Position numbers and translations under genes: made by a program | The notes under the pieces: generated by a model | Told to the model about the DNA's origin: nothing | Databases searched by the model: none | Seen by the model: only the letters and a program-made list of their open reading frames with translations | DNA from: Gammaproteobacteria bacterium | GTDB taxonomy: Bacteria; Pseudomonadota; Gammaproteobacteria; Eutrophobiales; Eutrophobiaceae | Reading direction: 5' to 3' | NCBI GenBank assembly: GCA_965222155.1 | Contig: CBDCTH010000010.1 | Coordinates: 2,267 to 66,266, forward strand | DNA length: 64,000 bases | Shown: piece after piece, positions 11,825 through 49,305 of the stretch | How positions within the stretch are numbered: position 1 is the stretch's first letter | Layout: the number at the start of each line of letters is the position of its first letter

Positions 11825-12010
11825 CCCCGCGTAATCTGCGTTCATCTGCGTAATCTGCGGATAAATTAACCCACGGATGGGAAAAACTCCCAATCATTTA
11901 TTCTCTTTTCCCTGTATTCACTTGTAGATCAAACAGCTACATTACATTTATCAGGTATGCACCAACATGCTGACCTGGTATCACCATAAAATCCCGGGAA
12001 AGTCTGGCAA

Positions 12011-14820: not shown

Positions 14821-14870
14821 TAAAACAGGTAAACTTACGCACCTTATTTGTAAACTTGGACTTGATTGGT

Positions 14871-15413
14871 ATGGAACAGGCATACACAGACATTATCAAA
14901 GAAATCGACGACCTTAACCGGCCGGGATTAAAACACACACCTCAACGCGCGGCCCGGGCAATGCGTTTTCTGACCCAGGGTTACTCGCAAAACCTGGAAG
15001 AGATAATCAACGATGCCCGCTTCCCGACGGAAAGGAGCGAGATGGTCGTCGTCCAGGATATAGAACTCTATTCGCTTTGCGAACATCACTTGTTGCCGTT
15101 TGTCGGCAAGTGTCACGTGGCTTACATTCCGAACAAGTTTGTCATCGGCCTGTCCAAGGTCGCCAGAATCGTCGATATGTATGCGCGCCGGTTGCAGAAC
15201 CAGGAGGACCTCACCATGGATATCGCCCGGGCAATGAATACCGCGACGGATGTTGAAGACGTCGCCGTCATCATCGAATCCAAACATCTTTGCATGATGA
15301 TGCGCGGCGTGGAAAAACAGAATTCCGTGATGAAAACATCGGCCATGCTGGGTATTTTCCGCTCCAACGCCAGCACGCGGGCAGAATTGTTCTCATTACT
15401 GAAATCAACCTGA
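14871..15413 (+). CDS. folE: GTP cyclohydrolase I
   Basis: [40 protein letters not shown] and [21 protein letters not shown] are FolE signatures. ATG at 14871 is preferred to TTG at 14856. Confidence 0.9.
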
Positions 15414-31873: not shown

Positions 31874-32097
31874 GCTCGCAATCGCCATCCCCGCGCAAGC
31901 GGGAATCCAGTCGAAACAACGATTCCCTCCTGTTACCCGGAATACCATCAGCAGCATCCGGACCACAATCATCTTATCTGTTCAAGAAAACCCCTGATTT
32001 ACTCAGTATTGTAAACAGTACAAGGATGTATCGGCAAAATCAATTACATTGACTGACTCGCAGCAGCTCCCGCTAACTCCCGGGACCTAGGATATTT

Positions 32098-32143
32098 GGG
32101 ACACCCATAAATTAAATGAGGGTTTTAAATTAATGGGTGTCCC
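32098..32143. repeat. Palindromic element GGGACACCCATAAATTAAATGAGGGTTTTAAATTAATGGGTGTCCC
   Basis: A near-identical copy lies at 43227-43272, and related units lie at 6627-6790. Confidence 0.85.
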
Positions 32144-32284
32144 GGATTTACCTCCCGGATTTACCCTCTCAATAACAAGCCACTACCACTTGCCAAACTG
32201 ACTGTATTTTTACTCTGACCCCAAATATCTTTGCGCAGTAAAGCTAAGAAATCTTTGATCCTTCCCTTGCAAAAAGTAACTTAT

Positions 32285-32563
32285 ATGATACCATATAGGA
32301 TATATGATAATAGCCCCTATGCCGAATGGTTCAGTCGCTTGAATGCAAGCGCTGCAGCCAAGGTGGTCTCAGCGGTACATCGAATGGAACAAGGCAACTT
32401 CTCTAATGTTAAAGGTGTTGGTGGCGTCTATGAGTATCGGATTGATTTTGGCCCTGGCTATCGGATTTACTTTGGTAAGGATGGGGACCAGCTTGTGATA
32501 TTGCTCGCCGGCGGCGCCAAAAAGCGCCAGGATGTGGACATTATGGCCGCAAAAAAGTACTGA
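32285..32563 (+). CDS. RelE/ParE-superfamily 'addiction module killer' toxin
   Basis: YAEWFSRLNASAAAKVVSAVHRMEQGNFSNVKGVGGVYEYRIDFGPGYRIYFGKDGDQLVILLAGGAKKRQ matches the killer-protein family pattern. Confidence 0.75.
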   Translation: MIPYRIYDNSPYAEWFSRLNASAAAKVVSAVHRMEQGNFSNVKGVGGVYEYRIDFGPGYRIYFGKDGDQLVILLAGGAKKRQDVDIMAAKKY

Positions 32564-32583: not shown

Positions 32584-32925
32584 ATGGCAAGAGGTGTAAT
32601 GATGGTTTTAACAAAAAATTTTAAAGAAACCATTCAAGTGCGCACGCAATGTGATCCGGAATTTCGCAAAGCCTTGCTGAAAGAAGGCATTGAGTGCCTC
32701 CTTACGGGAGACATTGATACCGGCAAAACGGTGCTGCGTGACTATATCAATGCGACGGTTGGATTTGAGGAATTAGCTGAGGTCTTCGATAAATCAAGTA
32801 AAAGCCTCATGCGTATGTTCGGACCTAAAGGGAATCCACAGGCGCGTAATCTATTCGCTGTACTCAGCTATTTGCAGGAGCGGGAAGGGATACGCCTGGA
32901 AGTCAAAACCAGAAAAGTGGCCTAA
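32584..32925 (+). CDS. Addiction module antidote protein (HTH)
   Basis: DPEFRKALLKEGIECLLTGDIDTGKTVLRDYINATVGFEELAEVFDKSSKSLMRMFGPKGNPQARNLFAVLSYL. It pairs with the upstream killer gene. Confidence 0.7.
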   Translation: MARGVMMVLTKNFKETIQVRTQCDPEFRKALLKEGIECLLTGDIDTGKTVLRDYINATVGFEELAEVFDKSSKSLMRMFGPKGNPQARNLFAVLSYLQEREGIRLEVKTRKVA

Positions 32926-33058: not shown

Positions 33059-33367
33059 TCAAGCACGATACCTTCTTATATCGTGTTTTTTCCAGCCGGG
33101 TACGTGAGCCGTCATCAACGCCTTGAAGAGTTTGCCGTGATTGGGCACGCGCAGGTGCAGCAATTCATGGACGATGACGAAGTTCTGAAAACCTTCTTCC
33201 TGTTCGGTGAGGTCGGCAGCCAGGGTGATGATCCCTGAGGTCGAGCACGAACCCCACTTGTGTGTCATACGCTGAACTCGAACATACCGAGGTCGAACGT
33301 TCAGTCTGCGCGCCCAGTATTCAACATAGGAACGAATGGCATCATGCCGTTTGTCATGCGTCTGCAT
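33059..33367 (-). CDS. DUF45/YgjP-like (M48-type) zinc metallopeptidase, short form
   Basis: [16 protein letters not shown] and [18 protein letters not shown] (HExxH) motifs. It overlaps the hsdR stop by 14 nt. At 102 aa it seems to carry only the catalytic half of the family. Confidence 0.65.
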
Positions 33368-36305
33368 CGATGTCTGCGTCCAGAAGAATTGAAAGGATGA
33401 GAGTCACGACATTGATCCGTTCCGCCTTATCCAACTGCAGAAGCGGTCGGTAGAGAGCCGCGCGCAGCCGCCGTCTCTCATCGGCGTTGGCGGCCGCGTT
33501 GGGAAAACGAATAAAAAGCTCTTCTGCTTCCCGCGCCAGTGCCAATGTCGAGATGCCGGCGGAATTGATCCCTTCATTATCCCTCAACGCCCAGTGCATA
33601 CCGAATGCGCGCGGCGAGAGACCACTCTTTCCCGCCGCCTCGACGGCTGCTTCCTTCTCCCTGGCCAGGACGGCCAACAGATCCAACGCGACGAGTCCGG
33701 TCGTCTTACGCTCCTCCAGGTCCTTCAGAATTTGCTCGGCTCGTTGCTTTAAAGGCAGCAGTACCGACTCCAGGTCCGGTTCATTCTGTATTTCCTGCCG
33801 GAGACCGCGCACGAGGTTGAACACCTTGGCCTCGTCTGAGCCCGGCTCTCCTCGAAGCGCTTCAAGGGTAGCCACGTCGAACGTCACTGTTCTCTCCAGG
33901 TAGCCAAGACCTTCCTGAACCGCGCTATCCTGCACCATCAAGCGCGTCTTGTTGGCCAGGTCCACCACGTAGTTGACGCGGTTTATATAGGCGTTACACA
34001 CGGTCGCATAGAGCTGGACAAGGCGCTTGAAGGTCAAAACATGGTCGCGTAGCGCCGGTGAAGGCGACAGTATCTCCCAAAGCGCCTCGATTTCCTTATA
34101 AGATTCGATGAATTCCTTGCGCGACGCCGGTTCCAGGAAACGCCCATAGACGATCTCCTCAAGACGCTCGTCCGCAGCGCCGCTCCCCTCGTCACTGAGA
34201 TAGTTTTTTTTCGCCGTCTCGATCTTCTCCAAAAAATCCTTCAGGAGCAGATCGAGGTCTTCGATCACGCCACTTACATCAAGGGAATCGAACCGCAACG
34301 CCTTGTTTAATTCGCTCAACACACCGACGAAATCGACGACAAGGCCGATCCGCTTGGGTTTGCCGTTTACGTCTATGTAAGGGCGGTTCACCCGTGCGAT
34401 CGCTTGCAAAAGGACGTGATCACACATCGGTTTATCGAGATACATACAATAGAGAAGCGGCGCATCGTAGCCCGTCAACAGTTTGTCGGTCACAATGAGA
34501 ATTTTCGGGTTCTCATCCGGTTTCTTGAACATGAGACGTGTGTCCGCTTCACGTTCCGGAGACAGCTGCAACTCCGCAACGAGAGGACGATCGACAATGT
34601 CGGCGGTATTTTCGGTATAGATGGGTGTAATCCAATCAGACGGCAGGAGTTTGTCGAGCGCGTGCTTGTACCTGGCGCAGGCTTCCCGGTTTACCCCGAC
34701 GAGGAATGCCTTGTAGCCGAGCGGCGCCACGTTCTGCTTGAAATGCTCGGCGACAAATGCGGCGACCTTCCCGATCCGGTCATCAGCGGTCAGGAAGGTA
34801 CGCAAACCGACTGCTCGATCGAGGACCTTGTTGAGTTCATCGACATCGGTAACGCCTTCAGCTTTGGCCAAGGCGAAGAATTCCTTGTCCAGTTGCCCCG
34901 CCGGTACTGTCATTTCGCTCGGCGCCATCGTGTAACGGATAGGCAAGGTCGTTTCGTCCTCAATGGACTCGGCGATGGAATACTTGTCGAGATAGCCCAA
35001 TTCATCGTCTACGCCGAATATCTTGAAGGTGCCCTTACCATATGCCGTTTTATCGACAGGCGTGCCAGTAAAGCCGATGATCGTTGCGTTGGGCACGGCC
35101 GCCATCAGGTAGGTGCCGAGATCTCTGGCGACTAAACGATGCGCCTCGTCAATAAAAACGTAAACGTTGTCGCGAGTGTTGGCGTTCTTCTCCAGCCTAT
35201 CGAACTTATGGATCATGGACAGGATCAGGCCGCGCTTATCGGTTCTGAACAAATCCTGGAGTTCGGTCTTGGATCTCGCGTGCCAGACCGCGATGTCCTG
35301 CTGCTGCATCTCACCTAGCAGCCTCTCGACCCAGCCTTTGATCTGTCCTTCCAGCTCCGTCCGGTCCACCACCACGACCACCGTCGGCGTGTGGAATCGC
35401 TCTTTGCGTTCCAGGATCAGGCGCGCGGCGGTGAGCAACGTAAAGGTCTTGCCGGAACCTTGCGTATGCCAGATAAGCCCGCGCCGTTTCGCCGGTTCGG
35501 AGCAACGCTCGATGATACGGTCGACGGCATGACGCTGATGCTGACGCAGCACGGATTTTCGCGTCTCGCCGTCTTCGACGTAGAAGAGAATCCAGTCTCG
35601 CAACGTGCGCAGGAAATCAGTGGGTTCAAAGAACGACTGCACCGCGAACCGGTAGTTCTCCTCCGGGCGTTCCTTCCAGCGCGCCATGAATCGACGCGAG
35701 GCGTTCCATGTGACCCCGTACCAGTAGTCGATAAGATGGGTAACGTTGAAGAGCTGCGCTGACCCTAGCATTTCAGGCGTTTCCTTCTCATAGCGGCGCA
35801 ACTGTGTGATACCCCGCTCAATCGCGTCCCGGTCCTTAGGGTTCTTGTGTTCAACGATAGCCACGGGGACGCCGTTGACGACGAACATCACGTCCGCGCG
35901 GTTGCCCTTGCGGGCCGGCGGCTTGAGCTTCCACTCCCAGGTGACGTGAAGGGTATTGGCATCCGACGTATCAAAGTCCATAAGTCGGACCTGCCGGTTA
36001 CGTTCCTCTACTTCATCGTACCACTGCCGCTCGCCGCGTAACCAGGTGAGAATCTCGCGGTTGCCTTCAATCGTCGGGGGAAGCGCTTCGAGTCTCTCAA
36101 CGACGGAATGGATGACGCCCTCCGTCATCCAGGGGTTGAATTCGCCCAGTTTCGCCATGAGTTCATCGCGAAACAGCATCCCGGCCTCGCCACTTCGCTT
36201 TTGCTTGGCTACCTCGGGTGGGACCGGCGTCCAACCGATCTCTGCTGCATGGCGAATCATGGGGAACTGGACCGAGGCGGCCTCGGTGATTTTGAGGTCG
36301 GTCAT
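33354..36305 (-). CDS. hsdR: Type I restriction enzyme R subunit
   Basis: 983 aa. It has an N-terminal nuclease region, SF2 helicase motifs ([24 protein letters not shown]) and a long helical C-terminus. It lies in an operon with hsdM and hsdS. Confidence 0.9.
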
Positions 36306-36535
36306 AGCGGACTCGTGCTAGTCACACAAGCCGGGTGGAAAAGTTCTTGACATGAGTACCCTTTGCGCTTACAAAAAGCCTGTTGGGAATTGCGGACGGA
36401 CTCGAGGAGGGCTGTCCAATCCGATGAAAGGTTTCCTCCTGATGATAAGCGATCCAAGTGAGAACTTTCCGGTAACGGGGTAGTCAGGAGATGCATTCTT
36501 TTAACTGACCATCTGTTCAATCCGGTCTTCCTCAC
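36302..36535 (-). other. 77-codon upstream ORF coupled to hsdR (stop overlaps the hsdR ATG). It contains the conserved peptide TPLPESSHLDRLSSGG.
   Basis: GTG 36535 overlaps the stop of a DUF3800 3' fragment, and TGA 36302-36304 overlaps ATG 36305 (ATGA). The peptide is shared with 38158-38211, and the nucleotide differences are almost all synonymous. Confidence 0.4.
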
Positions 36536-36650
36536 GCTTTGATGCGAAAAATATCAAATTTACTGCGAATCGCTGCTTGGATACGATCACGATAGGCTGA
36601 AATCTCCTCTTTCCCACTTGCGGGACAACGATAGAGTCGCCACGCATTCA

Positions 36651-36710
36651 CGAATAAGCCGGAATAAGCCGGAATAAGCCGGAATAAGCCGGAATAAGCC
36701 GGAATAAGCC
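36651..36710. repeat. Microsatellite: six tandem copies of the 10-bp unit GGAATAAGCC
   Basis: CGAATAAGCC followed by five GGAATAAGCC. It lies between the stop of the AlbA_2 gene and a duplicated DUF3800 3' fragment (36536-36640). Confidence 0.9.
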
Positions 36711-36721
36711 CCATTGCAGTC

Positions 36722-38146
36722 TCACAGAAGTTGCCAACGCGCGCCCCGGCCGTGTCCCATAGCTGTGACCAAACCGCGAGCTTTGAGTATGGCGAGGTCC
36801 TCGCGCAATCGTCGCTCGTTGGTATGCGGCCCTAACTGAACGCGGATATCGCGCAAAGCCAGACCATCATCCGTATGACCCAGCAGGGCAAGAATTGCCT
36901 CTTGCCGTTCAATCGAACCGCTTCCGGTACGTTGTTGCGGCACGAATTGGCCGTGCCGGAAGCGTACGGTCACACAGTCGTTGGCATCCTCAATATCAAG
37001 GGTCGGCAACCCTGCTGCATTCGTCAGTTCCGCCATCTTGAGAATCCCACCTCCCCACTCCTCAATGACGCCACGCCGGTAGAAGGTGTTGGCAATTAAT
37101 GGATTCCAAGGGCGCGATTCGTGCGGCGCGAACAATTTTTCCGGGGTCAACCCGAAGTGCAGCGAGCCGGGTGAGGTCACCTCCAGACGGTCGTCGTAGA
37201 TCGCCACTCCCACCGAGCCGCCACCAATCGAATAGTCGCGATGGCAGAGGGCGTTAGCCAGCGCTTCCCGCGTTGCGAGAGGCGGGTAGAGCGGTTCGTC
37301 GATCCGTTCAAAGCGGTCCGATTCGAACCGCCCCGCGATGGGGAGGCTATCCCGCAAGAAGCGCTCGGCGTTGGAGAGCAGCGCGAAGGCGTTACCCTTG
37401 AACTGTCGATTGTCCAGGAACTCCATCTTGTCGAGGCCCCGGAAACGGGCAACGCGAAGCAGGCACTGCGGCATCTCAAACTCGAGGCGCTTCTCGTTGC
37501 CGAACAGCACCGCCGCCGCCTTCAGTAATACGTCGTCGTGCAGCAACCCAAGCCCGCGCAATAACTCAACTGGTTCCCGACTTACAGGCTCTTCCAGTCG
37601 ACCGCGCCGGATCGCCTCTGCAGCCGTGCGCCGAAGCTCAGCAACGTCGAGGTCATTGATTGACCAGCCGGCGGCTGGTTGGTTCTCCCAGCGCTGATAG
37701 CTGTGCATCCGCTCGAAGAGCATTCGGTTGTACTCGTCGGCGGACATGGCCACGGTCGTACTCCCGACACGGCGGTAGGCTGTGCCCCGGTAGCTGTACG
37801 GCCTCGCCGTCCCCTGGCTTGTACCGACTATGATCACTTCTCGGTTGCCCCCTACCTGAACCCGTCCGACCGTTGGAAAAACCGGCGGTTCGATCCGTCG
37901 AAGCTCGGCGCTCAACTGCTCGATGGTGCGGTCGCCCACCTGCTGGCCTGTCACACCCCTTTCCGACGTTACACCGAACAACACCTGCCCGCCGTGTTGA
38001 TTGAGCATGGCACACAAAGTCTCAACCGCTTCACGACGCGTCCCCGTAGTGCTCTTGAACTCCAACGTCTCTGATTCGCCGATTGCAGCTAACGCTAATA
38101 TTTCATCAAGGGTCATGGATGCGCTCTCCTCTGTTTCGGTCCTCAT
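36722..38146 (-). CDS. AlbA_2 (Schlafen-like) / HATPase_c_4 (RecG-C-terminal-like) / winged-HTH protein (COG2865-type)
   Basis: IGESETLEFKSTTGTRREAVETLCAMLNQHGGQVLFGV (AlbA_2). REALANALCHRDYSIGGGSVGVAIYDDRLEVTSPGSL (HATPase_c_4). C-terminal LALRDIRVQL...LAILKARGLVTAMGHGRGARWQL (wHTH). The start is ATG 38146 or 38116, and the ORF-track start at 38320 is a TTG extension. Confidence 0.75.
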   Translation of the reverse strand: MRTETEESASMTLDEILALAAIGESETLEFKSTTGTRREAVETLCAMLNQHGGQVLFGVTSERGVTGQQVGDRTIEQLSAELRRIEPPVFPTVGRVQVGGNREVIIVGTSQGTARPYSYRGTAYRRVGSTTVAMSADEYNRMLFERMHSYQRWENQPAAGWSINDLDVAELRRTAAEAIRRGRLEEPVSREPVELLRGLGLLHDDVLLKAAAVLFGNEKRLEFEMPQCLLRVARFRGLDKMEFLDNRQFKGNAFALLSNAERFLRDSLPIAGRFESDRFERIDEPLYPPLATREALANALCHRDYSIGGGSVGVAIYDDRLEVTSPGSLHFGLTPEKLFAPHESRPWNPLIANTFYRRGVIEEWGGGILKMAELTNAAGLPTLDIEDANDCVTVRFRHGQFVPQQRTGSGSIERQEAILALLGHTDDGLALRDIRVQLGPHTNERRLREDLAILKARGLVTAMGHGRGARWQLL

Positions 38147-38328
38147 TTCCTGGTAAAGCCCCCCGATGACAAGCGGTTCAGGTGGGAACTCTCGGGCAAT
38201 GGAGTAGCAAGGGTGATCATTTTTTTGTTTGTAACCCCCTCGCAGTTCCAATAACGCTTGACATGCGGCTCCATCAAGAGGTAAGTTTGTAATTGGTTTA
38301 AAGTCCCTCCCTGACGACAAGGGCCCAA
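38143..38328 (-). other. Upstream ORF coupled to the AlbA_2 gene. It contains TPLPESSHLNRLSSGG.
   Basis: The stop TGA 38143-38145 overlaps ATG 38146 (ATGA). The conserved peptide is at 38158-38211. Confidence 0.35.
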
Positions 38329-38401
38329 GGGGCCCTCTCCGGTGACGGAGTAGTCAGGGGGGGCATTCTTTTAACTGACCGTCTGTTCAATCCGGTCTTC
38401 C

Positions 38402-39145
38402 TCACACCTTGACGCGAAAGATATCGAATTCACTGCGAATCGCCGCCCGGATACGATCGCGATAAGCTGAATCTCCTCTTTCCCACTTGCGAAACATTGC
38501 CCAGCAACAGTAGTCTGCCAATTGTAGTCCGTAATGTGAGCATGACGCGTGGTGGAACGTTCGGAGCCTCGTGCCACCTGGGAGCATTCGCGCCAACGTA
38601 TTTCGCACAACGGTCCCTGCCGCCTGTCGCTTCCCGGTGAACGGCAGGGTGTCGGTAATGACAATAAACTCCCCAGCGCCTCTTTCAATCTCCTCGCGAA
38701 TGACAAATCTGAGAAGATAGCCCAGCATTCTCGGATAAAGGCGACTCCCTTGCCGCAACGACAGAGTTGCTTTGCGTTTCTCGACTATCAGACAGTCGAT
38801 GCGGATATCGTCAAGATGGGCGACAATCAGATCGAAGACGCCATCTCGTACGCGTCGGTTGTCTTTAGCGCAGTGGAACGACTCCAAGTCCAGTCCGAGT
38901 TCCAGGCACCCGTGCCGGTACGCGTCAAGCGGCCCCATTGCAGGAAATGGCCGGCACAGACTGACACTGGTCAACACGAAGTGGCGCGTGCCGTTGGCAC
39001 TGAAATCGAAGTTGCCTGACTCGTCCAGGAAGATGTATGAGTGGTCAGTCACCTCATCATCTCCTTCAAGAACTCGTTTGTATATTGAAGATATCGCAAC
39101 GCAATGGCTTGATGAGCGAGGGGAGCTTGTTGCGCATGAACCCAC
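38402..39145 (-). CDS. DUF3800-family protein
   Basis: YIFLDESGNFDF near the N-terminus and GLQLADYCCWA near the C-terminus are the DUF3800 hallmarks. A GTG at 39052, preceded by AAGGAG, is an alternative start. Confidence 0.7.
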   Translation of the reverse strand: MGSCATSSPRSSSHCVAISSIYKRVLEGDDEVTDHSYIFLDESGNFDFSANGTRHFVLTSVSLCRPFPAMGPLDAYRHGCLELGLDLESFHCAKDNRRVRDGVFDLIVAHLDDIRIDCLIVEKRKATLSLRQGSRLYPRMLGYLLRFVIREEIERGAGEFIVITDTLPFTGKRQAAGTVVRNTLARMLPGGTRLRTFHHASCSHYGLQLADYCCWAMFRKWERGDSAYRDRIRAAIRSEFDIFRVKV

Positions 39146-39165
39146 CTGTCATCGTTCCACTGGAT

Positions 39166-39744
39166 TCAGCTTTTAGAGTGAATGTATTCATTAGTTCTGA
39201 TTCTCCGCCGAATCTCCCTTTCTGCTGCACCCAACGCATAATACCTATTACCCCCCTTTACTGTTGCGACAACTCGACTCTGGGATTGATAGTGACGGTA
39301 TGCCTCATCAGGGAGGCATCGTTCGCATATGAAGTCCGTTCCTTCATAATTGTCGCTATAAACCAATTGCGCGTCACAGTCTGGGCAGAAACACCAAAGA
39401 TTCGATATCTCGTTACCAGTCCATGACCAACGCCATTTCGCTCCGTCCAGCATATCTTCAGTATAGTTTCGATATGCTGGTTCATTCTGTGGACGAAGAG
39501 CCATATATAGCCAAGCAAGACCAACGAGCGCAAATAATCCGATAATCAGAATCGCCCAACCAGGCATCGAATAGTAAGAGATTAGCGAAGTCCAAGCCCA
39601 AGTGATGCCCTCCCACACCCATGACATTGCTTCTGCCACGAAACCGCGCAATTGCGGGACGGCGGATAATATCAACCCTCCAATCACTGTTGCAATGATC
39701 CCGTTTCTCACGGAATGTGAATGCTTATCTGTCATAAATTCCAA
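39166..39744 (-). CDS. Uncharacterized 2-TM membrane protein with a C-terminal CxxC...CxxC zinc-ribbon-like domain
   Basis: TM segments GIIATVIGGLILSAV and WAILIIGLFALVGLAWLYMAL. The C-terminal domain is WRWSWTGNEISNLWCFCPDCDAQLVY...FICERC. The start overlaps the hsdS 3' end by 20 nt. Confidence 0.6.
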   Translation of the reverse strand: MEFMTDKHSHSVRNGIIATVIGGLILSAVPQLRGFVAEAMSWVWEGITWAWTSLISYYSMPGWAILIIGLFALVGLAWLYMALRPQNEPAYRNYTEDMLDGAKWRWSWTGNEISNLWCFCPDCDAQLVYSDNYEGTDFICERCLPDEAYRHYQSQSRVVATVKGGNRYYALGAAEREIRRRIRTNEYIHSKS

Positions 39745-41041
39745 TCATATCTAACGACGAATCGTACGTCGATTGTAACGCCGATAGGTTGAGATCGACG
39801 ACCTGGATTTCGCTCGTCATCAGCCTGTGCAACAGCGCCTTGAATAGGTCTTCTAATACCTTACGTTTCTTTCGGTGCAGGTCGATCTTGCGGTCGATAG
39901 CGTCGAGGATGGAGACAATCTCGCGTTGTTCGTCTAAGGTAGGAACCGGCACTAACCGCTCTTTGATTTGCCGGTCAGTGACAGCCGGGTAGCTCGCTCC
40001 CGTTTCGATTTTTGAAAGTTGTTCAATAAACTCTTGTCGCTGCACTAGCTGGAAGATATATTTCCCGTTCATATTTCGATCTTTGTCACGCAAAACGCAA
40101 AATGCCGTCGAGCAAACTTGATCGTTTAGTTCTTCTTCAATCTTTGCAACACGCAAAAGGGTCGGGCGAACAGTTGCAAATATGACATCTCCGGTCAGGA
40201 TACGTTTACGCGCCCGGCTAGGTGCATATCTCAGCTTGTACCGCGTCGTAGTTTCCACCTGATGGAATTCGCGAGATATTGATGAAACGTCCACATACTG
40301 TATCTCGCGTTCAGCTTGTTCAGTCATGTTGACTTGATCAGCCGGCAAACAAAGAGAGCCTAATTTCTCTATCCCCCAACTCTCCGGAACCGGGCCGATT
40401 TTGGTTTCCTTCGACTCCTCTCCCCTAAGCCCGCGCGTGAACAGCGTCCGCATTGCCGCGCGTTTGAGGTCGCGCACACCCTGTTCGCATTCGGTCTCAG
40501 ATTCAGACGCTTTTTGGATCGCTTCCAATGCATCAGCGATTGCGTTTTGCTCGTCAAACTCGAAGGATGGGATCGGCAGGTTGAGCAGCACATTTTCCGG
40601 AATGCGTTTGCGCCCGGTCGATCCCTCCATCCTTTCTGCCATATATTCCCGCACATCCGGGTGAAGCAGATAGTAGAACAGAAATCGCGGATCATGTGTC
40701 GCTGAGATTGGATGAAGAGGGATTACTTCGGTCGTCGCATACCCAAACGGCTCAGCAAAATTTCGGACCAGCGCCTGCTTTCCGTTCTCGAAGGACGGAG
40801 TGATCTTGGCGACTAGGATATCGCCACGTTCAAAGTATGTCCCACTGACGATTGTCCCTGGCGCTCTCATTTCATACTTTGGCAGGTACGCGCCACCCCG
40901 CGGAATTGCATCCATCGCGGCGAACGGAATGGCCGGCAAGAACGAGGGATCAATTCCGCGTGGCTTCTTCGTCACAGCATAGTTGTCTCCAACGCGAGAC
41001 CATTCGCGACCTTCACCGAGGTCTGCTTTAAGTAGGCTCAT
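39725..41041 (-). CDS. hsdS: Type I restriction-modification specificity subunit
   Basis: 438 aa with two target-recognition halves separated and followed by conserved helical repeats (LDEQ..I...L..I...I). It overlaps hsdM by 14 nt. Confidence 0.85.
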
Positions 41042-42893
41042 CCATCACCCCGATCAGCAGTTTAGAGATCGCCGCCGAAAGCCGACTCGCCTCGCTATCG
41101 AGGTTGGTTAGTTCCCGAACAAGTGTGCTAACAGAACCAACCTCTGCAGAACTGGACTGCCCCACCCACCGACTGGGACTGAGATTGTAGTCCGCCTTCT
41201 CCGCATCCTCCCGCGTGATCACGGCAATCTCACCCTCGACGGGTTCGCCCTTGAGGTAGGCTGACGCGAGCGGACGGATGTCCTCCTCCGGGATGAAGTT
41301 CTTGGGGCGCCCTTTCCGCACACGTTTGCCGGCGTTGAGTAGCACGAGCTTATCCTTCCGTTCCGCCGGTTTGCGCTTTGACAACACCACAATCACGCCA
41401 GCGGCGCTGGTGTTATAAAACAGGTTGTCCGGCAGCAGGATCACGCCGTCGATCAAATCGCGGTCGACGAACCATTTACGGATGTTGCGTTCCCTGTCCT
41501 CGTGCTTGCTGCCGGAGCCGCGTGTCACGGCGCCGGTGTCGAGTACAACTGCCGCTCGTCCCCGCTCGTTCAGGCAGGCGATGGTGTGTTGGAGCCAGGC
41601 CCAGTCGCCCTTGCCGGTGGTTACGCCGCCCCGGCTGCGGAAACGGTCGAACGGGTCGTTGGCGAAGATGTCCGGGTTGAACGGCTGATTCCACATCGGG
41701 TTGGCGACCACGATGTCGTGGGTAGCGATCTGGCCGGCCGCAGTTTTGAACTTTGGGTTAATCATCGTGTCGCCGCGGGCAATCTCGACCTCCATGTCGT
41801 GGATGATCGCGTTCATCTGGGCAACCGCGTAGCTCTCGGCTTGCAATTCCTGTCCGCAGAGCTTGAGCGGCAGACGGCTGGTGGGGTCAAGCTCCCGGGC
41901 AACGAGTTGCAGTTTGACGAGCAGTCCGGCCGAACCGCAGGCGTAGTCGTGGCAATCCTCACCGGGCCTGGGGCGCAGGATGTATGCCATCAGGAAACCG
42001 ACCTCGGTCGGGGTGAAGAACTCGCCCGCGCTCTGGCCTGAACCTTCTGCGAACTTGCGTAGCAGGTACTCATAGGCGCGGCCGAGGAAATCGGGCTGCA
42101 CATCAGCAAGGCCAAGCCGGTAACGAGGGTCGGAGAAGGTTTCGACCACCGCGGTGAGCTTCGCCGGGTTGATATCGCGCTCCCCGTTGCGCTCGGCCGC
42201 GAAATCCACTATGTCAATAACGCCTGACAGCGAAGGGTTATAACGCACGACCGCGCGCACGGCTTTTGTCAAATGTTCGCCGATGTCTCCAGGCCGCGTG
42301 CTTCTCCCTTGGTTGTCTGGCGGCCACTCATAGTCTTCGCGACCGCTGATGACCACCCAGCGGGCATCTGGGGGCAGGTAGAAGCGCAGCAGGTCGTGAT
42401 CGGTCTCGGCGATCTCAAGCGCAGTAACCCGATTACCATATTCTTCGGCCAGGCGTTCGATCTCATCGTTGAAAACGTCGGACAGCCGTTTCAGGAACAG
42501 GAGCGGCAACAGGTAATCCTTGAATTTGGGGGCATCTTTTTCTCCGCGAATGGAGCAGGCCGCATCCCATAGCATCTGCTCCATGGGCTTCGTTGAGGGG
42601 GTAGAGCGTCGCCGGCCCGTTGTCGTATCACGCACGCCGCCAGTCCGTCGCCGCGTCACGCGCGCTGCCGCTTCGGCTGGCTTCGCAGCCGACTCCATCG
42701 CGCCCACGCCTGCCTCAACAGCAAGCGCGGCGATTACTTCCCGCGCTGCTTTCTGTGGTAAAATAGTACCACCTTCCCAACGGTTAACGCTAGCAAAGGA
42801 AACGCCTAGCCGTTCCGCGAGTTGCTCCTGGGTGAGATCAAGACTGGCGCGGATGGCACGCAATGTGGCTGCAATGACATTTTTGTTTGTCAT
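41028..42893 (-). CDS. hsdM: Type I N6-adenine DNA methyltransferase with an N-terminal XRE-type HTH domain
   Basis: N-terminal [32 protein letters not shown]. The HsdM_N-like region has [11 protein letters not shown]. The SAM motif is [12 protein letters not shown]. Catalytic motif IV is [10 protein letters not shown]. Confidence 0.85.
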
Positions 42894-42960: not shown

Positions 42961-43233
42961 TCAGATACAACCAGCCGGCAACTGAATGATCTTATTGCTG
43001 AGCAGGCGCCCCTGGTTACTGTTGTTAATAACAATCCCGAAAGGCGAATCATGCTGCTGCACGAATTGTTGCAATGGCTTGAGTTGTTGCAGGGTGGTCT
43101 GGTGACCAAATTTGATTTCAATCGGCAGGATGCCAAAGCTCCCTTCGAGGATCAGGTCGATCTCGACGCGGTTTTTGGTGCGGTAATAAAAATAGTCCCA
43201 CCGAAGGATATTTGGGAAGGATATTTGGGACAC
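42961..43233 (-). pseudogene. DUF4143-family AAA ATPase, C-terminal fragment
   Basis: YYRTKNRVEIDLILEGSFGILPIEIKFG... is the C-terminal DUF4143 region. The upstream part is replaced by the palindromic element at 43227-43272. Confidence 0.6.
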
Positions 43234-43330
43234 CCATAAATTAAATGAGAGTTTTAAATTAATGGGTGTCCCGAATTTACCCCCGTTAAATTAATGGGTG
43301 TCCCGAATTTACCCCCGAATTTACCTCCCG
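43227..43330. repeat. Palindromic element GGGACACCCATAAATT...AATTAATGGGTGTCCC plus an extra half copy and GAATTTACC tandem units
   Basis: Same family as 32098-32143. Confidence 0.85.
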
Positions 43331-43462
43331 GATTTACCTCTTTATATCAGCCATTTCCTAACTCTACGCCAGGAATTTACTGATGTAAGGAGGATTCTGG
43401 GATCATCGGCAGTTCCTGCTAACCGAATCTTGTGGAAAACCTGAATACCCCCGGCATTGATA

Positions 43463-43502
43463 CCTGCGTCCAGAAGAATTGAGAGGATGAGAGTCACTAC
43501 AT
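43463..43502 (-). pseudogene. 40-bp fragment matching the 3' end of hsdR
   Basis: TCTGCGTCCAGAAGAATTGAGAGGATGAGAGTCACTACAT compared with 33373-33412 matches at about 37 of 40 positions, in the same orientation. Confidence 0.6.
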
Positions 43503-43792: not shown

Positions 43793-44623
43793 TTATGAGC
43801 GCCATGATTACTCGGTCCAGGCATATCAAAGAGATCATCCGGCGTCTCAGGCACTTCGAGGTCGTTGCCATCCTGGAGGGGCCGGCAGGTCGGCAAGACC
43901 ACGTTGGCAAAACAGGTAGCCGGGAGCTATCACACGCGGTCTCATTATTTTGATCTGGAAGACCCTGTGGCCTTGTCCAGACTCGGAGAAGACCCGAACC
44001 TTGTGTTGCGAAATTTGAAGGGTCTGATCATTGTCGATGAAGTGCAACGTTTACCGAATCTTTTTCCACTGCTTCGAGTGCTGTCGGACCGCCGGCCGCG
44101 GCCGGCGCGCTTTCTGGTTCTGGGCAGTACGTCGCCGAACCTCCTCCGGCAATCCTCTGAATCCTTGGCTGGTCGGATAAACTACTACGAACTGAACGGC
44201 TTGGGGCTGGATGAAACAGGAAATGACCGGCTTGCACGGCGTTGGCTCCGGGCAGGTCTCGTGCATTACCTGCTGGGGATCGGTGATGACAGGTCTCTTG
44301 ACGTGCATCCCGGCAGAGGCGGCACATGGGAGGGGCTTATACTGGAGTTGGCCATGGAACAGCTGAGAGGTACAGGCCGGGAGTTTTATTATTGGCGAAC
44401 TCATACCGGTGCGGAACTCGACCTGTTTGCTCCGTCCGGCAGAGAACGGTTAGGTATCGAGGTGAAGCTTTCCTCGGCGCCGGCCATCACACCGTCGATG
44501 CGCCATGCAGTCAATGATCTCGAACTCACGGACTTGGTCGTGGTACATGCCGGTGAAGCATCCTATCCTATGGGTGACAGGATACGGGCGGTGCCAGCCA
44601 AGCTGTTGCTTACGAATTTGTGA
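43793..44623 (+). pseudogene. AAA ATPase (DUF4143 family), frameshifted and internally deleted
   Basis: ATG 43793 gives MSAMITRSRHIKEIIRRLRHFEVVAILEGPAG. The frame then shifts to RQVGKTTLAKQV (Walker A) in ORF 43865-44623. The protein jumps from the mid region directly to the C-terminal HYLLGI...HPGRGGTWEGLILE part. Confidence 0.65.
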
Positions 44624-45061
44624 TTGAGCTGAAGGGGTCCTTGGCAGCAGGAGTTCCCGCTGATTTTATCAACTTGCCGGGAACGAGGGCAGCTTGCCCT
44701 CGTCGAGGACGGGACGCTCTCGCTCCAAGGCAGGTGCTCCCGCTAAATCGAGATCAATACAGTGATTTTTATCGAAGACAAGGGGGACAGATTTAAATCT
44801 GTCCCCCAAGTTCCCCTGACCATAAGGGGGCATGTTTCCCTGGGAGGGAGGGCGTCTCGCCCTCCACGAGGGCAGGATGCCCTCGGTCCCGGAAGTTAGC
44901 GGAAACTGCTGCCTTGCCAGTACCTCGGTTGTAATATCGGAAAACTGTAATATACTCCCCTTTGTGCAGTACCTCCCCTTTATCTGAGGAGCGTTGCGAC
45001 GGGTGGCGGATAATCCGCACCCGCCAGGCTCAGGTAAATGTCATGAATTAACGGCGCTCAC

Positions 45062-45473
45062 TTAACCCGCATTTCTCACCAGTTGATGCGATGATCGCGC
45101 CGGATTTTTGCCGCCAGCGGGTGCCTGCGACCAAAAGCATAGCCGTAGTTGATGTGCGCCCTCCATGGCGCGCACCCTGCGGGCATCCTTCGGATGTCCA
45201 AATCTGCTCCAGGCAGATTTGTCTGGTTGAGGGACAAATCGTCAGGACTGACGATTTGCACGGCGACAGCCGCCCGCAGGGTTGCGCCCAGAGCCTGCCC
45301 CCCTGCTTACAACCGCAGGGGCAAGCTCTGTATGCAGTTGAGCAGGGGGATGGGCGCAATGAACGCATCAAGCGCAGTCTGTTATGTTGATATTGTGAGC
45401 AGGTTATCATAACGTATTGACAGCAAACAACTAGCCGATGACGATAAGCGAACTGGTGAGAAATGCGGGTTAA
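45062..45473. mobile_element. 412-bp MITE-like element with perfect 23-bp terminal inverted repeats (TTAACCCGCATTTCTCACCAGTT)
   Basis: Terminal inverted repeats at 45062-45084 and 45451-45473. A homologous 266-bp copy lies at 51122-51387. The flanks are compatible with a TA duplication. Confidence 0.7.
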
Positions 45474-45603: not shown

Positions 45604-48600
45604 ATGATTGGCGCGACCGAACGACAATTACGTAGCCTGTTAAAAGAGCGTATCCTGCTGCTGGATGGGGCGATGGGCACCATGATCCAGTCTTATCGCC
45701 TGCAGGAAAGTGATTTTCGCGGGGAGCGCTTTGCCGATCATGACCGCGATTTGAAGGGAAACAACGACCTGCTGTCTCTCACCCGGCCGGATATTATCAG
45801 GGATATACATGCCGCGTTCCTCGACGCCGGCGCCGACATTATCGCGACCAATACCTTCAACTCCACTGCAATTGCCATGGCCGATTACGAGTTGCAGGAC
45901 CAGGCGTACGAGTTGAACCGGAGCGGCGCCGGACTGGCCCGGGGTATTGCCGATGAGAAGTCTGCGCCGGAAAAACCCCGCTTCGTTGCCGGTGTCCTCG
46001 GCCCTACCAACCGCACCGCTTCCATATCGCCGGACGTCAACAAACCCGGGTTTCGCAATATCACCTTTGCGGAACTGGCGGAAGCCTATACGACCGCCAT
46101 CCGGGGACTGGTGGAGGGCGGCGTCGATATCCTGCTGCTGGAGACCATCTTCGATACCCTGAATGCCAAGGCCGCCCTGTTCGCCATCGAGTCCTTTTTT
46201 GAAACAAGCGGCGCCCGCCTGCCTATTATCATTTCCGGCACCATTACCGATGCCTCAGGCCGGACCCTTACCGGCCAGACCAATGCCGCCTTCTGGCATT
46301 CCGTCCGTCATGCAGAACCATTAGCAATAGGGTTAAATTGTGCTTTGGGTGCCAAAGACTTACGTGAACATATTCAAGAACTTTCTAATATAGCTGACAC
46401 CTATGTCAGCATCTATCCAAATGCCGGACTACCTAATGAATTCGGTGAATACGATGAGACACCCGAGTATATGGCCGACATTCTCGAAGAGTTTGCCCGC
46501 AGCGGATTTCTCAATATCGTCGGCGGTTGTTGCGGTACCACCCCGGAACATATCGAGCAGATCCATGACCAGGTATGCATCCAGCCACCCCGGACCATTC
46601 CCGACGTCCTGTCTTTTTGCCAGCTGAGCGGCCTGGAAGCGCTGACCATTACCCCCGCGGCTAATTTCATCAACATCGGTGAACGCACTAACGTGGCCGG
46701 TTCCCCCAAATTCCTGCGGCTTATCAAGGAAAGCAAGCTGGATGAGGCGCTGGATATTGCCCGCCAGCAGGTGGAGAACGGCGCCCAGATAATAGACGTG
46801 TGCATGGATGAGGGACTGCTTGATTCCGAGCAGTTAATGCAGGACTTTCTCCTGCTGGTTGCCGGCGAACCTGATATCAGCCGGGTACCGACCATGATCG
46901 ATTCATCGCGCTGGTCCGTCATCGAGGCCGGATTGCGTTGTGTCCAGGGTAAATGCATCGTGAACTCCATCAGTCTGAAAGAGGGGGAGGATAAATTCAG
47001 GGAACAGGCCCGGGTTATCAGGCGCTACGGGGCGGCGGTCGTGGTGATGTGTTTTGATGAACAGGGACAGGCAGACACCACCGAACGTCGTTTTGAGGTG
47101 GCAAGACGGTCTTATCATATCCTGGTGGATGAACTCGGCTTCCCTCCAGAAGATATCATCTTTGATCCCAATATCCTCACCGTCGCCACCGGCATGGAGG
47201 AGCATAACAATTATGCGGTCTCATTTTTTGAAGCGAGCCGCCTGATCAAGGAAAACTTGCCAAACGCCCTGGTCAGTGGGGGCTTGAGCAATGTTTCTTT
47301 TTCCTTCCGGGGCAATAATCCTGTGCGGGAGGCCATGCACTCGGCCTTCCTGTATCACGCGGTCAAGGCTGGTATGGATATGGCGATTGTCAATGCCGGC
47401 CAGCTGGGTATTTATGATAAAATACCCACAGACCTGCTGGAAAGGGTGGAAGACGTGTTGCTCAACAGGCGCCCCGATGCCACCGATCGCCTGGTTGAAT
47501 TCGCCGAGACCGTCAAGGATGTGGGGGAAAATAAAAAGAAAGCAGATGAACAGACCTGGCGTGGTAGCAGTGCGCAGGAACGCCTGTCCCATGCCCTGGT
47601 GAAAGGGATCGACACCTGGATTGAAGCCGATACGGAGGAAGCGCGGCAACACTATGACAGGCCCCTGCAGGTCATCGAAGGACCGCTGATGGATGGCATG
47701 AACATCGTCGGCGACCTGTTCGGCGCCGGCAGGATGTTCCTGCCCCAGGTGGTGAAAAGCGCGCGCGTCATGAAAAAAGCGGTTGCCTACCTCATCCCCT
47801 TTATCGAGGAAGACAAAAAAGGCGGTGGAGATTACCGGTCCCAGGGCAGGATAGTCATGGCCACCGTTAAAGGCGATGTCCATGATATCGGGAAAAATAT
47901 CGTCGGCGTAGTCCTGCAATGCAATAACTTTGAGGTAATCGACCTCGGCGTCATGGTCCCGGCCGAAATCATCCTGAAAACCGCGCAGGAAACAAACGCC
48001 GACTTTATCGGTCTGAGTGGTCTTATCACCCCGTCACTGGATGAAATGGTACACGTGGCGGAAGAGATGCAGCGCCGGGAATTCGATGTTCCCCTGCTTA
48101 TCGGCGGCGCCACTACTTCACGCACACACACCGCGGTAAAAATTGAACCGCGCTACAGGCAACCGGTGATACACGTGAAAGACGCCTCCCGCGCCGTGGG
48201 CGTGGTACAGCGTTTGATCAGTGAAGATTTGAAAGCCGATTTCAGCAAACAGGTAAAAGAGGAATATGCGGTAGTTCGGGACAGACATAAAGGCAGACAG
48301 GCCGGGATCAAATGGCTGCCATTGGCCGAGGCACGCACAAACCGGTTCCCGGTTGATTGGCAGACCTACCGGCCGCCCGAACCGAAAATAACGGGAATCC
48401 GGGTATTCAACGATTACCCGTTAGCTGACCTTCAGGATTATATAGACTGGACCCCCTTCTTTGTTGCCTGGGAGTTAGCCGGCCGTTTTCCACGAATTCT
48501 GGACGATGAAACAGTCGGGGAAGAAGCGCGAAAACTTTACCGGGACGCCAGGGAAATGCTGGATACAATCATCCATGAAAAGTGGCTGGCAGCCCGGGCT

Positions 48601-49305
48601 GTTATCGGCCTGTTCCCAGCCAACTCCATCGGTCACGACGATATCGAAGTCTACGTGGATGACAGTCGCATGGGACTACTGGCTGAGTTCCATTCTTTAA
48701 GGCAGCAGACAAAAAAACCGCCGGGTCAGCCCAACTTTGCCCTGGCTGATTTTATCGCACCGAAACAGACCGGACGGAATGATTATATCGGTGCTTTTGC
48801 CGTAGCCGCAGGATTTGGAATGGAAGACAAATTACACCAGTTCGAGCAGGACCATGACGATTATCGCGCGATCATGTTGAAAGCCCTGGCTGACCGGCTG
48901 GCGGAAGCCCTGACGGAACGACTGCACCAGCGGGTAAGGAAGGAATTCTGGGGATACCAGGCGGACGAAACCCTTGACAATAGCGCACTCATCGCCGAGA
49001 AATACCGGGGGATCCGCCCTGCCCCCGGTTATCCGGCCTGTCCGGACCACACAGAAAAACCGCTTATCTGGGATTTGCTCAAGGTCGAGGCAAATACCGG
49101 GATAACGCTGACCGACAGTTATGCCATGTACCCGACCGCAGCCGTGTGCGGCCTGTATTTCTCCCACCCCGACTCGCGCTATTTCGGGCTGGGGAAGGTC
49201 AACCGCGATCAAGTCTCCGACTATGCCCTGAGGAAAGGCATGGAAGTGCGTCAGGCGGAGCGCTGGCTGAGCCCCAGCCTTGGGTACGATCCCGATACCG
49301 TGTAG
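45604..49305 (+). CDS. metH: Cobalamin-dependent methionine synthase
   Basis: 1233 aa with all four modules: Hcy-binding, pterin-binding, B12-binding ([15 protein letters not shown]) and an AdoMet activation domain. Confidence 0.95.

Follow-up and report, generated by a model that had tools for sequence, protein, structure and literature searches.

Whether genes nested together in a Type I restriction-modification (R-M) operon form one immune system or are separate passengers is the question raised by a locus of a gammaproteobacterium (assembly GCA_965222155.1, contig CBDCTH010000010.1). The stretch of this contig that was analysed, hereafter the window, is 64,000 nucleotides (nt) long. Between its hsdS and hsdR genes lie genes for a membrane zinc-ribbon protein, a DUF3800 protein and a protein with AlbA_2 (Schlafen-like) and HATPase_c_4 domains, and a preliminary description of the sequence had proposed that the three form a single sensor/effector system. 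Here, we have compared the locus with about 100 related loci and propose that the hsdS-hsdR stretch is a mosaic cargo bay with three independent accessory modules, not one system, an account that we consider probable with its mechanism included. One of the modules is a DUF3800 gene together with a structured element behind its stop codon.

Cargo between hsdS and hsdR

Among the loci compared, the full trio is shared by the window and a single close relative, the locus L001 of a Latescibacterota metagenome-assembled genome. When loci were selected by the DUF3800-linked element, the zinc-ribbon gene was present in none of the 47 and the AlbA_2 gene in one, and at least nine of these operons belong to the same R-M family as the window. 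A frame of hsdM with a helix-turn-helix (HTH), hsdS and the zinc-ribbon gene was recognised in 15 loci, and wherever a locus extends to the far end, cargo, hsdR and a short DUF45 gene follow. Within this frame, DUF3800 and AlbA_2 together make up the cargo only in the window and L001. Elsewhere the slot holds TIR_2, LD_cluster2, ThsB_TIR, MNT/HepT or AIPR genes, with or without AlbA_2, and other cargoes include Fic with DUF3800 and PIN, TIR with PIN, pairs of PIN genes, a gene for a 2036-residue protein and insertion sequences. The cargo turns over at the level of strains. In four contigs of the sample ERZ25071132 (L031, L033, L034 and L035) the flanks are identical and hsdM, hsdS and the zinc-ribbon gene are shared; the contigs differ in cargo, by the presence of AIPR and AlbA_2 and by a truncation of ThsB_TIR. 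Remnants of AlbA_2 and DUF3800 genes are also present in sister bays.

The single sensor/effector system is not borne out by these data: the genes do not co-occur, which the preliminary description had itself named as the outcome that would speak against its proposal. Its account of the setting fares better. Gene calls confirm that the three additional genes between hsdS and hsdR are real and co-directional, and Pfam agrees with the domains assigned to the R-M genes, to DUF3800 and to AlbA_2/HATPase_c_4. The genes are embedded in a Type I R-M operon, a known position for defence cargo with PrrC and TgvAB as precedents, and the defensive character of the slot is supported by sister operons that hold recognisable defence and toxin-antitoxin genes there. 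In PADLOC, a check that it had called for, the zinc-ribbon and DUF3800 proteins have no model. The AlbA_2 family is already known, being FAM_00002 in the available tables of Payne et al. 2024 (10.1101/2024.01.29.577857).

The zinc-ribbon protein represents a new, unannotated family. A W-R-W motif and a CxxC..CxxC motif are invariant among 225 homologues, and the latter, together with N-terminal membrane helices, agrees with the membrane-anchored zinc ribbon described earlier. The AlphaFold2 model (predicted local distance difference test, pLDDT, 74.5) has two or three N-terminal helices, a β-rich zinc-ribbon domain and a C-terminal helix, and a Foldseek search of this model against the PDB gave nothing below E = 0.6. 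The protein has no match above the curated cutoff in Pfam, NCBIfam, PADLOC or PHROGs, and Pfam searches with 28 homologues returned sub-threshold zinc-ribbon noise only, and DpnI at 17.5 bits against a cutoff of 26.7. In one sublineage the gene is translationally coupled to hsdS. That it is a core part of this R-M family was considered and rejected, as it is missing from sister operons with HsdR and HsdM 57-84% identical to those of the window. More than 20 other homologues stand alone, some by GmrSD, Mrr, HEPN or integrase genes and others by housekeeping genes. The protein would probably work on its own at the membrane, where it might, for instance, be a tether, a sensor of entry or an effector of abortive infection.

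The AlbA_2 protein has the N-terminal SLFN_AlbA_2 and the HATPase_c_4 domains that define the COG2865 type. Its C-terminus has no Pfam HTH match at E ≤ 0.01; the eggNOG rows of its homologues list HTH_24 and place them in COG category K, transcription. In PADLOC-DB v2 it gave just partial matches to pAgo-associated models. Copies 73-75% identical lie directly upstream of hsdR in L001, L033 and L034, a distant homologue stands alone between hsdS and hsdR on an Acidovorax plasmid, and another is found directly before hsdR on an Arcobacter plasmid. In the available tables of Payne et al. 2024, its family is very common and ranks first among those embedded in R-M, BREX and DISARM systems. Just after the AlbA_2 stop codon of the window is a perfect tandem repeat of GGCTTATTCC, read on the gene strand, and arrays with a period of 11 nt and other sequence occupy the same position in L001 (13530-13580), L033 (17481-17530) and L034 (17332-17381). 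Throughout this clade, 4.7-5.9 copies of a 10-11-nt unit stand behind the gene, and the units are lineage-specific (GGCTTATTCC, TAGGGGCGCAA, GGCGCGATGGG). From their period and their place before hsdR, the arrays could be iteron-like binding sites or a spacer subject to phase variation, and the AlbA_2 protein may bind its repeat array.

DUF3800 and its structured element

The DUF3800 protein matches PF12686 with E = 1.7e-11 (45.5 bits against a cutoff of 21). Residues D10, E11, D64, D134, Q177 and D180 are invariant among 30 homologues. Both motifs described for DUF3800 (PMC7736814) are present, the N-terminal DE motif as FLDESG (D10, E11) and the C-terminal QxxD motif as QLAD (Q177, D180). 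The top PDB matches of its AlphaFold2 model (pLDDT 85) in Foldseek were human RNase H2A (3PUF, E = 4.2e-5) and archaeal RNase HII (1EKE, template-modelling score 0.56). By its modelled fold the protein is thus predicted to be an RNase HII-like nuclease, in agreement with earlier predictions of an RNase H-like fold for DUF3800 (PMC7736814, PMC10910872). Members of DUF3800 have been tied to eleven non-coding RNA motifs (PMC5737381), occur in retron type VII (PMC7736814) and are among the accessory genes of Cas12a2/a3 and Cas13 loci, and the literature gives no demonstrated function for them. Searches of PADLOC-DB v2, NCBIfam and PHROGs with the window's protein returned nothing. Homologues 45-50% identical are solitary genes on Roseobacter plasmids, and further homologues are part of variable genomic islands or of viral contigs.

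The sequence past the DUF3800 stop codon recurs across sister loci and contains an element of ~65 nt that folds into a three-way junction. In P1, CCCCCYGA pairs with UCRGGGGG; P2 is formed by CUCCG, a loop and CGGAG; and P3 is a variable hairpin. The junction sequences GACUAC and UUGUCAUC are conserved, as is a tail, AACCUUUG. We searched for the element with a covariance model, R1, and by scanning metagenomes with a degenerate pattern. It lies directly after the DUF3800 stop codon in 16 of the 16 loci selected by protein (15 strong R1 matches and one weak), which include plasmid, island and viral-contig copies without R-M genes. The metagenome scan gave 47 stretches, 46 of them true R1 matches at 53-93 bits; in 38 of the 46 the element is preceded at close range, on its own strand, by DUF3800 or its 3' end. 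Among 55 distinct sequences, 93.7% of the cells of the proposed helices are paired, compared with 47-64% when the partners are slid along the sequence. Ten pairs vary on both sides, none of 500 shuffles matched the observed score, and U-G wobbles fall on the sense strand. Steady adjacency and covariation, which mark a class of DUF3800-associated structured RNA, were thus both found. DUF3800 and its obligate 3' element make up a true recurring module, which is self-contained and is found alone on plasmids and in genomic islands.

Rfam holds DUF3800-I and DUF3800-IX among its DUF3800 motifs (e.g. RF02969, RF02968). These families gave no match, either on the window region (E ≤ 1) or on four short loci (E ≤ 10); motifs that may be absent from Rfam fall outside this comparison. 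We also considered, and rejected, that the element is a small-peptide gene. It has no conserved reading frame because the lengths of the P2 loop differ by 2 nt between loci, and its nucleotides are conserved all the same. A hammerhead-like ribozyme was rejected as well: inspection by eye found CUGAUGA on the antisense strand only, the GAAA core is absent, and there is no Rfam ribozyme match. Nor does the element mark every cassette boundary, as there are just one or two copies per bay.

Of the three copies in the window, only the one beside the intact DUF3800 gene folds well; its three-way-junction core spans ~38305-38362. In the eroded copy near hsdR, P2 and P3 have decayed. The tandem arrangement of an intact and a degenerate element is also seen in L001 and L070. 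In L095 (6544-6638) and L096 (6548-6642), a second copy lies ~360-450 nt upstream of a solitary DUF3800 gene, so that direct copies flank DUF3800.

The module is also linked to hsdR, which lies directly downstream of the element in 23 of the 46 element-selected loci. The spacing between the two is fixed within each family: it is 180-213 nt in the window's own R-M family (HsdR 57-84% identical to the window's) and ~37-38 nt in a family with HsdR 23-30% identical to the window's, where L074 with 14 nt and L088 with 88 nt depart from it. In at least two distant Type I families, the DUF3800-element module has repeatedly settled in the place just before hsdR. Many operons of the window's family have the order hsdS, DUF3800, element and hsdR, without the zinc-ribbon or the AlbA_2 gene. 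In sister bays a DUF3800 pseudogene precedes the hsdR-proximal element, and fragments of AlbA_2 follow the distal one. To our knowledge, no link of the element and DUF3800 to hsdR is on record.

A second conserved block, AATGAAAACGGCCGCCCCCGGTTACACCAGGCGACGACC...GGGCATTCCCGTTCCCG, occupies the ~200 nt between the element and hsdR in L053, L062, L063 and L067. It is found in the hsdR leader of operons without the zinc-ribbon gene and may be another structured or regulatory element.

Junctions, history and flanks of the operon

Seven co-directional genes are encoded on the minus strand in the order hsdM, hsdS, zinc-ribbon, DUF3800, AlbA_2/HATPase_c_4, hsdR and short DUF45 (Table 1). The subunits are those of a Type I R-M system, with N6_Mtase and HsdM_N in HsdM, Methylase_S in HsdS, and the HSDR_N nuclease region and a superfamily 2 (SF2) motor in HsdR.

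Table 1. Genes, repeats and structured elements of the operon, in the order of transcription of the minus strand; lengths in amino acids (aa), free energies as minimum free energy (MFE)
Feature	Position in window	Strand	Evidence
hsdM, N-terminal HTH	41028..42893	-	Pfam HTH_3, HsdM_N (E = 1.2e-21), N6_Mtase (E = 6e-73); PADLOC MTase_I
hsdS	39725..41041	-	Pfam Methylase_S (PF01420), two matched stretches; PADLOC Specificity_I (E = 1.9e-60)
Membrane zinc-ribbon protein, 189 aa, ATG start	39166..39735	-	225 homologues; overlaps hsdS by 11 nt
DUF3800 protein, predicted RNase HII-like nuclease, 216 aa, GTG start after GGAG	38402..39052	-	PF12686
DUF3800-linked structured element, intact copy	38289..38369	-	R1 80.9 bits; MFE -38 kcal/mol, z = -4.1, folds into P1-P3
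Element, degenerate second copy, upstream of AlbA_2 gene	38145..38223	-	R1 23.5 bits, E = 8e-5; poor folding, z = +0.9
AlbA_2 (Schlafen-like) and HATPase_c_4 protein, COG2865 type, 464 aa	36722..38116	-	AlbA_2 E = 7e-20; HATPase_c_4 E = 6.5e-20
10-nt tandem repeat, 5.9 copies, perfect, just after AlbA_2 stop	36652..36710	.	TRF score 118
Relic of a second DUF3800 3' end, ~31 last codons, 96 nt, frameshifted	36532..36627	-	Direct repeats D2 and D9, 87-93% identical to 38402-38496
Element, eroded copy by the relic, 112 nt upstream of hsdR	36417..36499	-	R1 73.7 bits; MFE -13.5 kcal/mol, z = -0.17
hsdR	33354..36305	-	Pfam HSDR_N, ResIII, SWI2_SNF2, T1R_D3-like; PADLOC REase_I (E = 1.7e-86)
Short YgjP-like/DUF45 metallopeptidase, 102 aa	33059..33367	-	PF01863, E = 4.7e-25, profile positions 113-200 of 207

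The preliminary description had linked the whole operon by a chain of overlapping genes. The 14-nt overlaps of hsdM with hsdS and of hsdR with the DUF45 gene are indeed there. When real starts were placed from homologue alignments and ribosome-binding sites (ATG 39735 for zinc-ribbon, GTG 39052 for DUF3800, ATG 38116 for AlbA_2), the overlap of hsdS with the zinc-ribbon gene shrank from 20 to 11 nt, and the inserted genes proved to be set apart by 113, 285 and 416 nt, so that the chain as a whole fails. Two short open reading frames (ORFs) that had served as its links, 36302-36535 and 36532-36714, are not genes; they overlie the tandem repeat, the DUF3800 relic and the repeated structured element.

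The gaps carry scars of recombination. Positions 36465-36627 are a ~163-nt direct repeat of 38335-38496 (87-93% identical) that comprises the last ~31 DUF3800 codons and sequence past the stop codon, that is, a 3' relic of DUF3800 and a repeated element. The relic has a 1-nt insertion, and its differences from the intact copy are mostly conservative or synonymous. As the repeat pairs the intact DUF3800 with the relic of a second copy, the AlbA_2 gene lies between the two. A likely history would begin with a base operon of hsdS, DUF3800, element and hsdR. A second block of DUF3800, element, degenerate element, AlbA_2 and repeats would then have arrived and made the older, hsdR-proximal DUF3800 redundant, and the decay of the latter would have left the 3' relic and the eroded element. 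A fragment similar to the 5' coding end of hsdR (HAEEIGWPRVPPE) is found in L001 at ~12000-12110, upstream of the AlbA_2 gene, and in L031 at ~14850-14950, upstream of the called hsdR start; by their similarity these fragments appear to be a further recombination scar in the hsdR 5' region.

At the other end of hsdR, the DUF45/YgjP-like gene corresponds only to the C-terminal HExxH half of the Pfam profile. The short form also stands 3' of hsdR in sister loci, with 100-119 aa as called and 116-129 aa on other contigs, and it is not a local truncation because it has been kept across the lineage. A scan for promoters and terminators found sites no more numerous than in shuffled sequence.

The operon is bracketed by a palindrome-containing direct repeat of 67 nt, whose copies at 32089-32155 and 43218-43284 are 96% identical; partial tandem copies lie at 43254-43340, and elsewhere in the window there is one weak half-site only. 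The 11.1-kb block between the pair contains a toxin-antitoxin pair, DUF45 and hsdR through hsdM, and the bracketing repeat may mark the edge of an island, stem from an att duplication or be a repeat element of the host. The toxin-antitoxin pair, placed between the left repeat and the DUF45 gene, consists of a Gp49-like (HigB-type) toxin ORF (32231-32563, plus strand) and a small ORF without a Pfam match (32584-32925, plus strand), which is probably the antitoxin. On the upstream side of hsdM there are a 90-aa C-terminal fragment of DUF4143 (42961-43233, minus strand) and a truncated AAA_14/DUF4143 gene (43865-44623, plus strand); in sister loci an AAA_14/DUF4143 gene is intact at the same place. 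Also upstream of hsdM, positions 43454-43502 repeat, over 49 nt and at 90% identity, the hsdR 3' end and DUF45 start (33364-33412). The copy looks like what is left of another or an earlier hsdR, a hint that R-M operons stood in tandem here or replaced one another. Further along, at 44980-45066 (plus strand), is an S-adenosylhomocysteine (SAH) riboswitch (RF01057), which scores 64.8 bits where the gathering score is 37; the gene for a 1233-aa B12-dependent methionine synthase (45604-49305) follows ~540 nt downstream of it.

Possible functions and related systems

How could the DUF3800 module act within this cargo bay? The element would be transcribed as the 3' untranslated region (UTR) of DUF3800. 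We infer that the nuclease is most likely gated by RNA, namely by the 3' UTR element of its own gene, to which the DUF3800 protein would bind. Beside hsdR, such a pair could back up the restriction enzyme, to which it would be coupled, in the manner of PrrC, or could control hsdR expression (post-transcriptionally). That a latent nuclease coupled to a restriction enzyme serves as its backup is the idea put forward for PrrC (PMC2610378). In its most specific form, DUF3800 and the element would be a ribonucleoprotein in which the RNA gates or guides the RNase H-like nuclease, and which guards the Type I enzyme and fires when restriction is blocked or when a labile RNA decays after phage shut-off. 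We put this form forward tentatively, as a possibility with rather low odds.

Several observations weigh against our account of independent modules and of an element that serves DUF3800. The neighbourhood sample is anchored on our own query sequences and is not a census, and independent events are fewer than the locus counts because many metagenome loci are near-duplicates. DUF3800 and AlbA_2 adjoin in three loci (the window, L001 and L070) and remnants of both occur in others, so that the two may be functionally linked. Moreover, some sister operons keep an intact element beside a DUF3800 pseudogene or directly after an unrelated ThsB_TIR gene, and the element may therefore serve hsdR or recombination instead of DUF3800.

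If the three proteins were nevertheless one embedded defence system, with the membrane zinc-ribbon protein as sensor and the Schlafen-like ATPase as effector alongside DUF3800, one would understand why the gene order is identical in the window and L001, why the block of DUF3800, element, degenerate element and AlbA_2 returns in L070, and why several sister bays hold remnants of both DUF3800 and AlbA_2, which suggests long shared residence. Yet each gene is often found without the others: zinc-ribbon is missing from all 47 element-selected loci and alone in more than 20 genomes, DUF3800 stands by itself on plasmids, in islands and on viral contigs, AlbA_2 is alone in other R-M operons, and gaps of 113-416 nt with recombination scars separate the genes. 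This lack of co-occurrence has already largely refuted the single system, which we hold to be very unlikely. Alternatively, the inserted genes might be regulators of the R-M system and not effectors; the C-terminal part of AlbA_2 would bind the 10-11-nt array and DUF3800 would cleave or bind the element, and their joint effect would be to time HsdR production or to hold it down, for instance while the operon becomes established in a new host. The short, fixed distance of the element from the hsdR start in two R-M families, the intact elements kept before hsdR even with a DUF3800 pseudogene, AlbA_2 genes directly upstream of hsdR in distant operons, the lineage-specific arrays between AlbA_2 and hsdR and the assignment of AlbA_2 homologues to COG category K (transcription) would all fit. 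Such a role is harder to reconcile with DUF3800-element modules and AlbA_2 genes far from any hsdR, with the link of DUF3800 to retrons and CRISPR effectors, and with the eroded state of the hsdR-proximal element in the window, and we regard it as doubtful.

It is also conceivable that the element works as DNA, an attC-like recombination boundary for which DUF3800 would be the mobility nuclease, so that a selfish cassette drives the turnover of cargo. Element copies do lie at junctions of unrelated cassettes (e.g. 13 nt after ThsB_TIR), occur in tandem (L001, L056, L070) or on both sides of DUF3800 (L095, L096), and have scars and duplications clustered around them. Against this, the element has a single orientation relative to DUF3800 and always follows its stop codon directly, the U-G wobbles favour folding of a sense-strand RNA, the nearest fold is RNase HII and neither a DDE transposase nor an integrase, no integrase is linked, and most cassettes of the bay lack the element. 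An integron-like array is likewise not what was found: bays hold one or two elements, and an integrase is absent from the available gene calls and Pfam matches. We consider a recombination site quite improbable. The regulatory and recombination readings nevertheless keep some weight because intact elements persist by pseudogenes and copies lie at cassette junctions. Finally, the inserted genes could be inert hitch-hikers without a function tied to R-M, in a gap that merely tolerates insertions. The bay does take in insertion sequences and toxin-antitoxin pairs and contains many pseudogene fragments, but the intact ORFs with invariant catalytic or zinc-binding residues, the same position and fixed spacing of DUF3800-element in two R-M families with HsdR under 30% identical, and the standing of AlbA_2 as the top embedded family of R-M, BREX and DISARM in the available tables make inert passengers extremely unlikely.

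The mosaic cargo bay that we favour has counterparts among known systems. In PrrC/EcoprrI and RloC, too, an accessory nuclease gene lies between hsdS and hsdR, and DUF3800 occupies the slot of prrC. Unlike PrrC and RloC, DUF3800 has a predicted RNase HII-like fold and a structured RNA encoded in cis, and profile searches found neither an ABC-ATPase N-domain nor an anticodon-nuclease domain in the three proteins, so that the operon position alone is common to both. Silencing by the R-M complex and activation by anti-restriction proteins are features of PrrC and are not known for DUF3800. Extra genes nested between Type I subunits are the subject of the 'guilt-by-embedding' search for genes nested in R-M, BREX and DISARM in the available text of Payne et al. 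2024, and TgvAB is embedded defence cargo of the Type I operon of Vibrio cholerae VPI-2 (PMC11411939). The AlbA_2/HATPase_c_4 family is listed in the former, but DUF3800 was not found in the part of its tables that was compared; our locus differs further in that the zinc-ribbon family and the DUF3800 subfamily have no PADLOC v2 model, and that strain-level cargo turnover and scars are recorded for one operon lineage. Neither the AlbA_2 family nor the nesting of genes in Type I operons is thus a novelty, and what is new is the DUF3800-linked element, its fixed place before hsdR in two R-M families, the zinc-ribbon family and the record of cargo turnover.

The element shares with the DUF3800 motifs I-XI, drum and skipping-rope (Weinberg et al. 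2017, PMC5737381) a conserved, covarying structure tied to DUF3800. Those motifs lie on either side of the gene and in either orientation (PMC5737381), whereas the present element is always directly 3' on the same strand and has no Rfam 15 model even at E ≤ 10. In retron type VII (a reverse transcriptase, a non-coding RNA and DUF3800) and in the TPR-DUF3800/Csx32 accessories of CRISPR loci, a DUF3800 RNase H2-like protein is likewise combined with a structured nucleic acid or a sensing immune module. The present locus has no reverse transcriptase, TPR domain or Cas gene, and the partners of DUF3800 are the ~65-nt 3' UTR element and a Type I enzyme. In ToxIN, a type III toxin-antitoxin system, and in TnpB/IscB with their omega-RNAs, a nuclease is controlled or guided by a structured RNA that is encoded next to it and transcribed together with it, and omega-RNAs start at the 3' end of the nuclease gene. 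Here there is a single downstream element, no upstream repeat array and a predicted RNase HII-like fold instead of ToxN, and there is no RuvC/TnpB architecture, transposon end or identified guide segment.

New immune systems are at present being found through defence genes that lie within R-M operons, and an hsdS-hsdR gap with strain-level turnover is a natural catalogue of candidate cargo, in which the zinc-ribbon membrane protein is a conserved family without annotation. Retrons, Cas12a2/a3 and Cas13 loci repeatedly have DUF3800 as an unexplained accessory, and there are eleven orphan RNA motifs that go with it. The 216-aa DUF3800 protein and the 65-nt RNA before hsdR make a compact, testable pair for learning its role. 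If DUF3800 is indeed an RNA-gated guard, this would give a function to the eleven orphan DUF3800 RNA motifs and would define a new class of RNA-controlled immune nucleases across R-M systems, retrons and CRISPR accessory genes.

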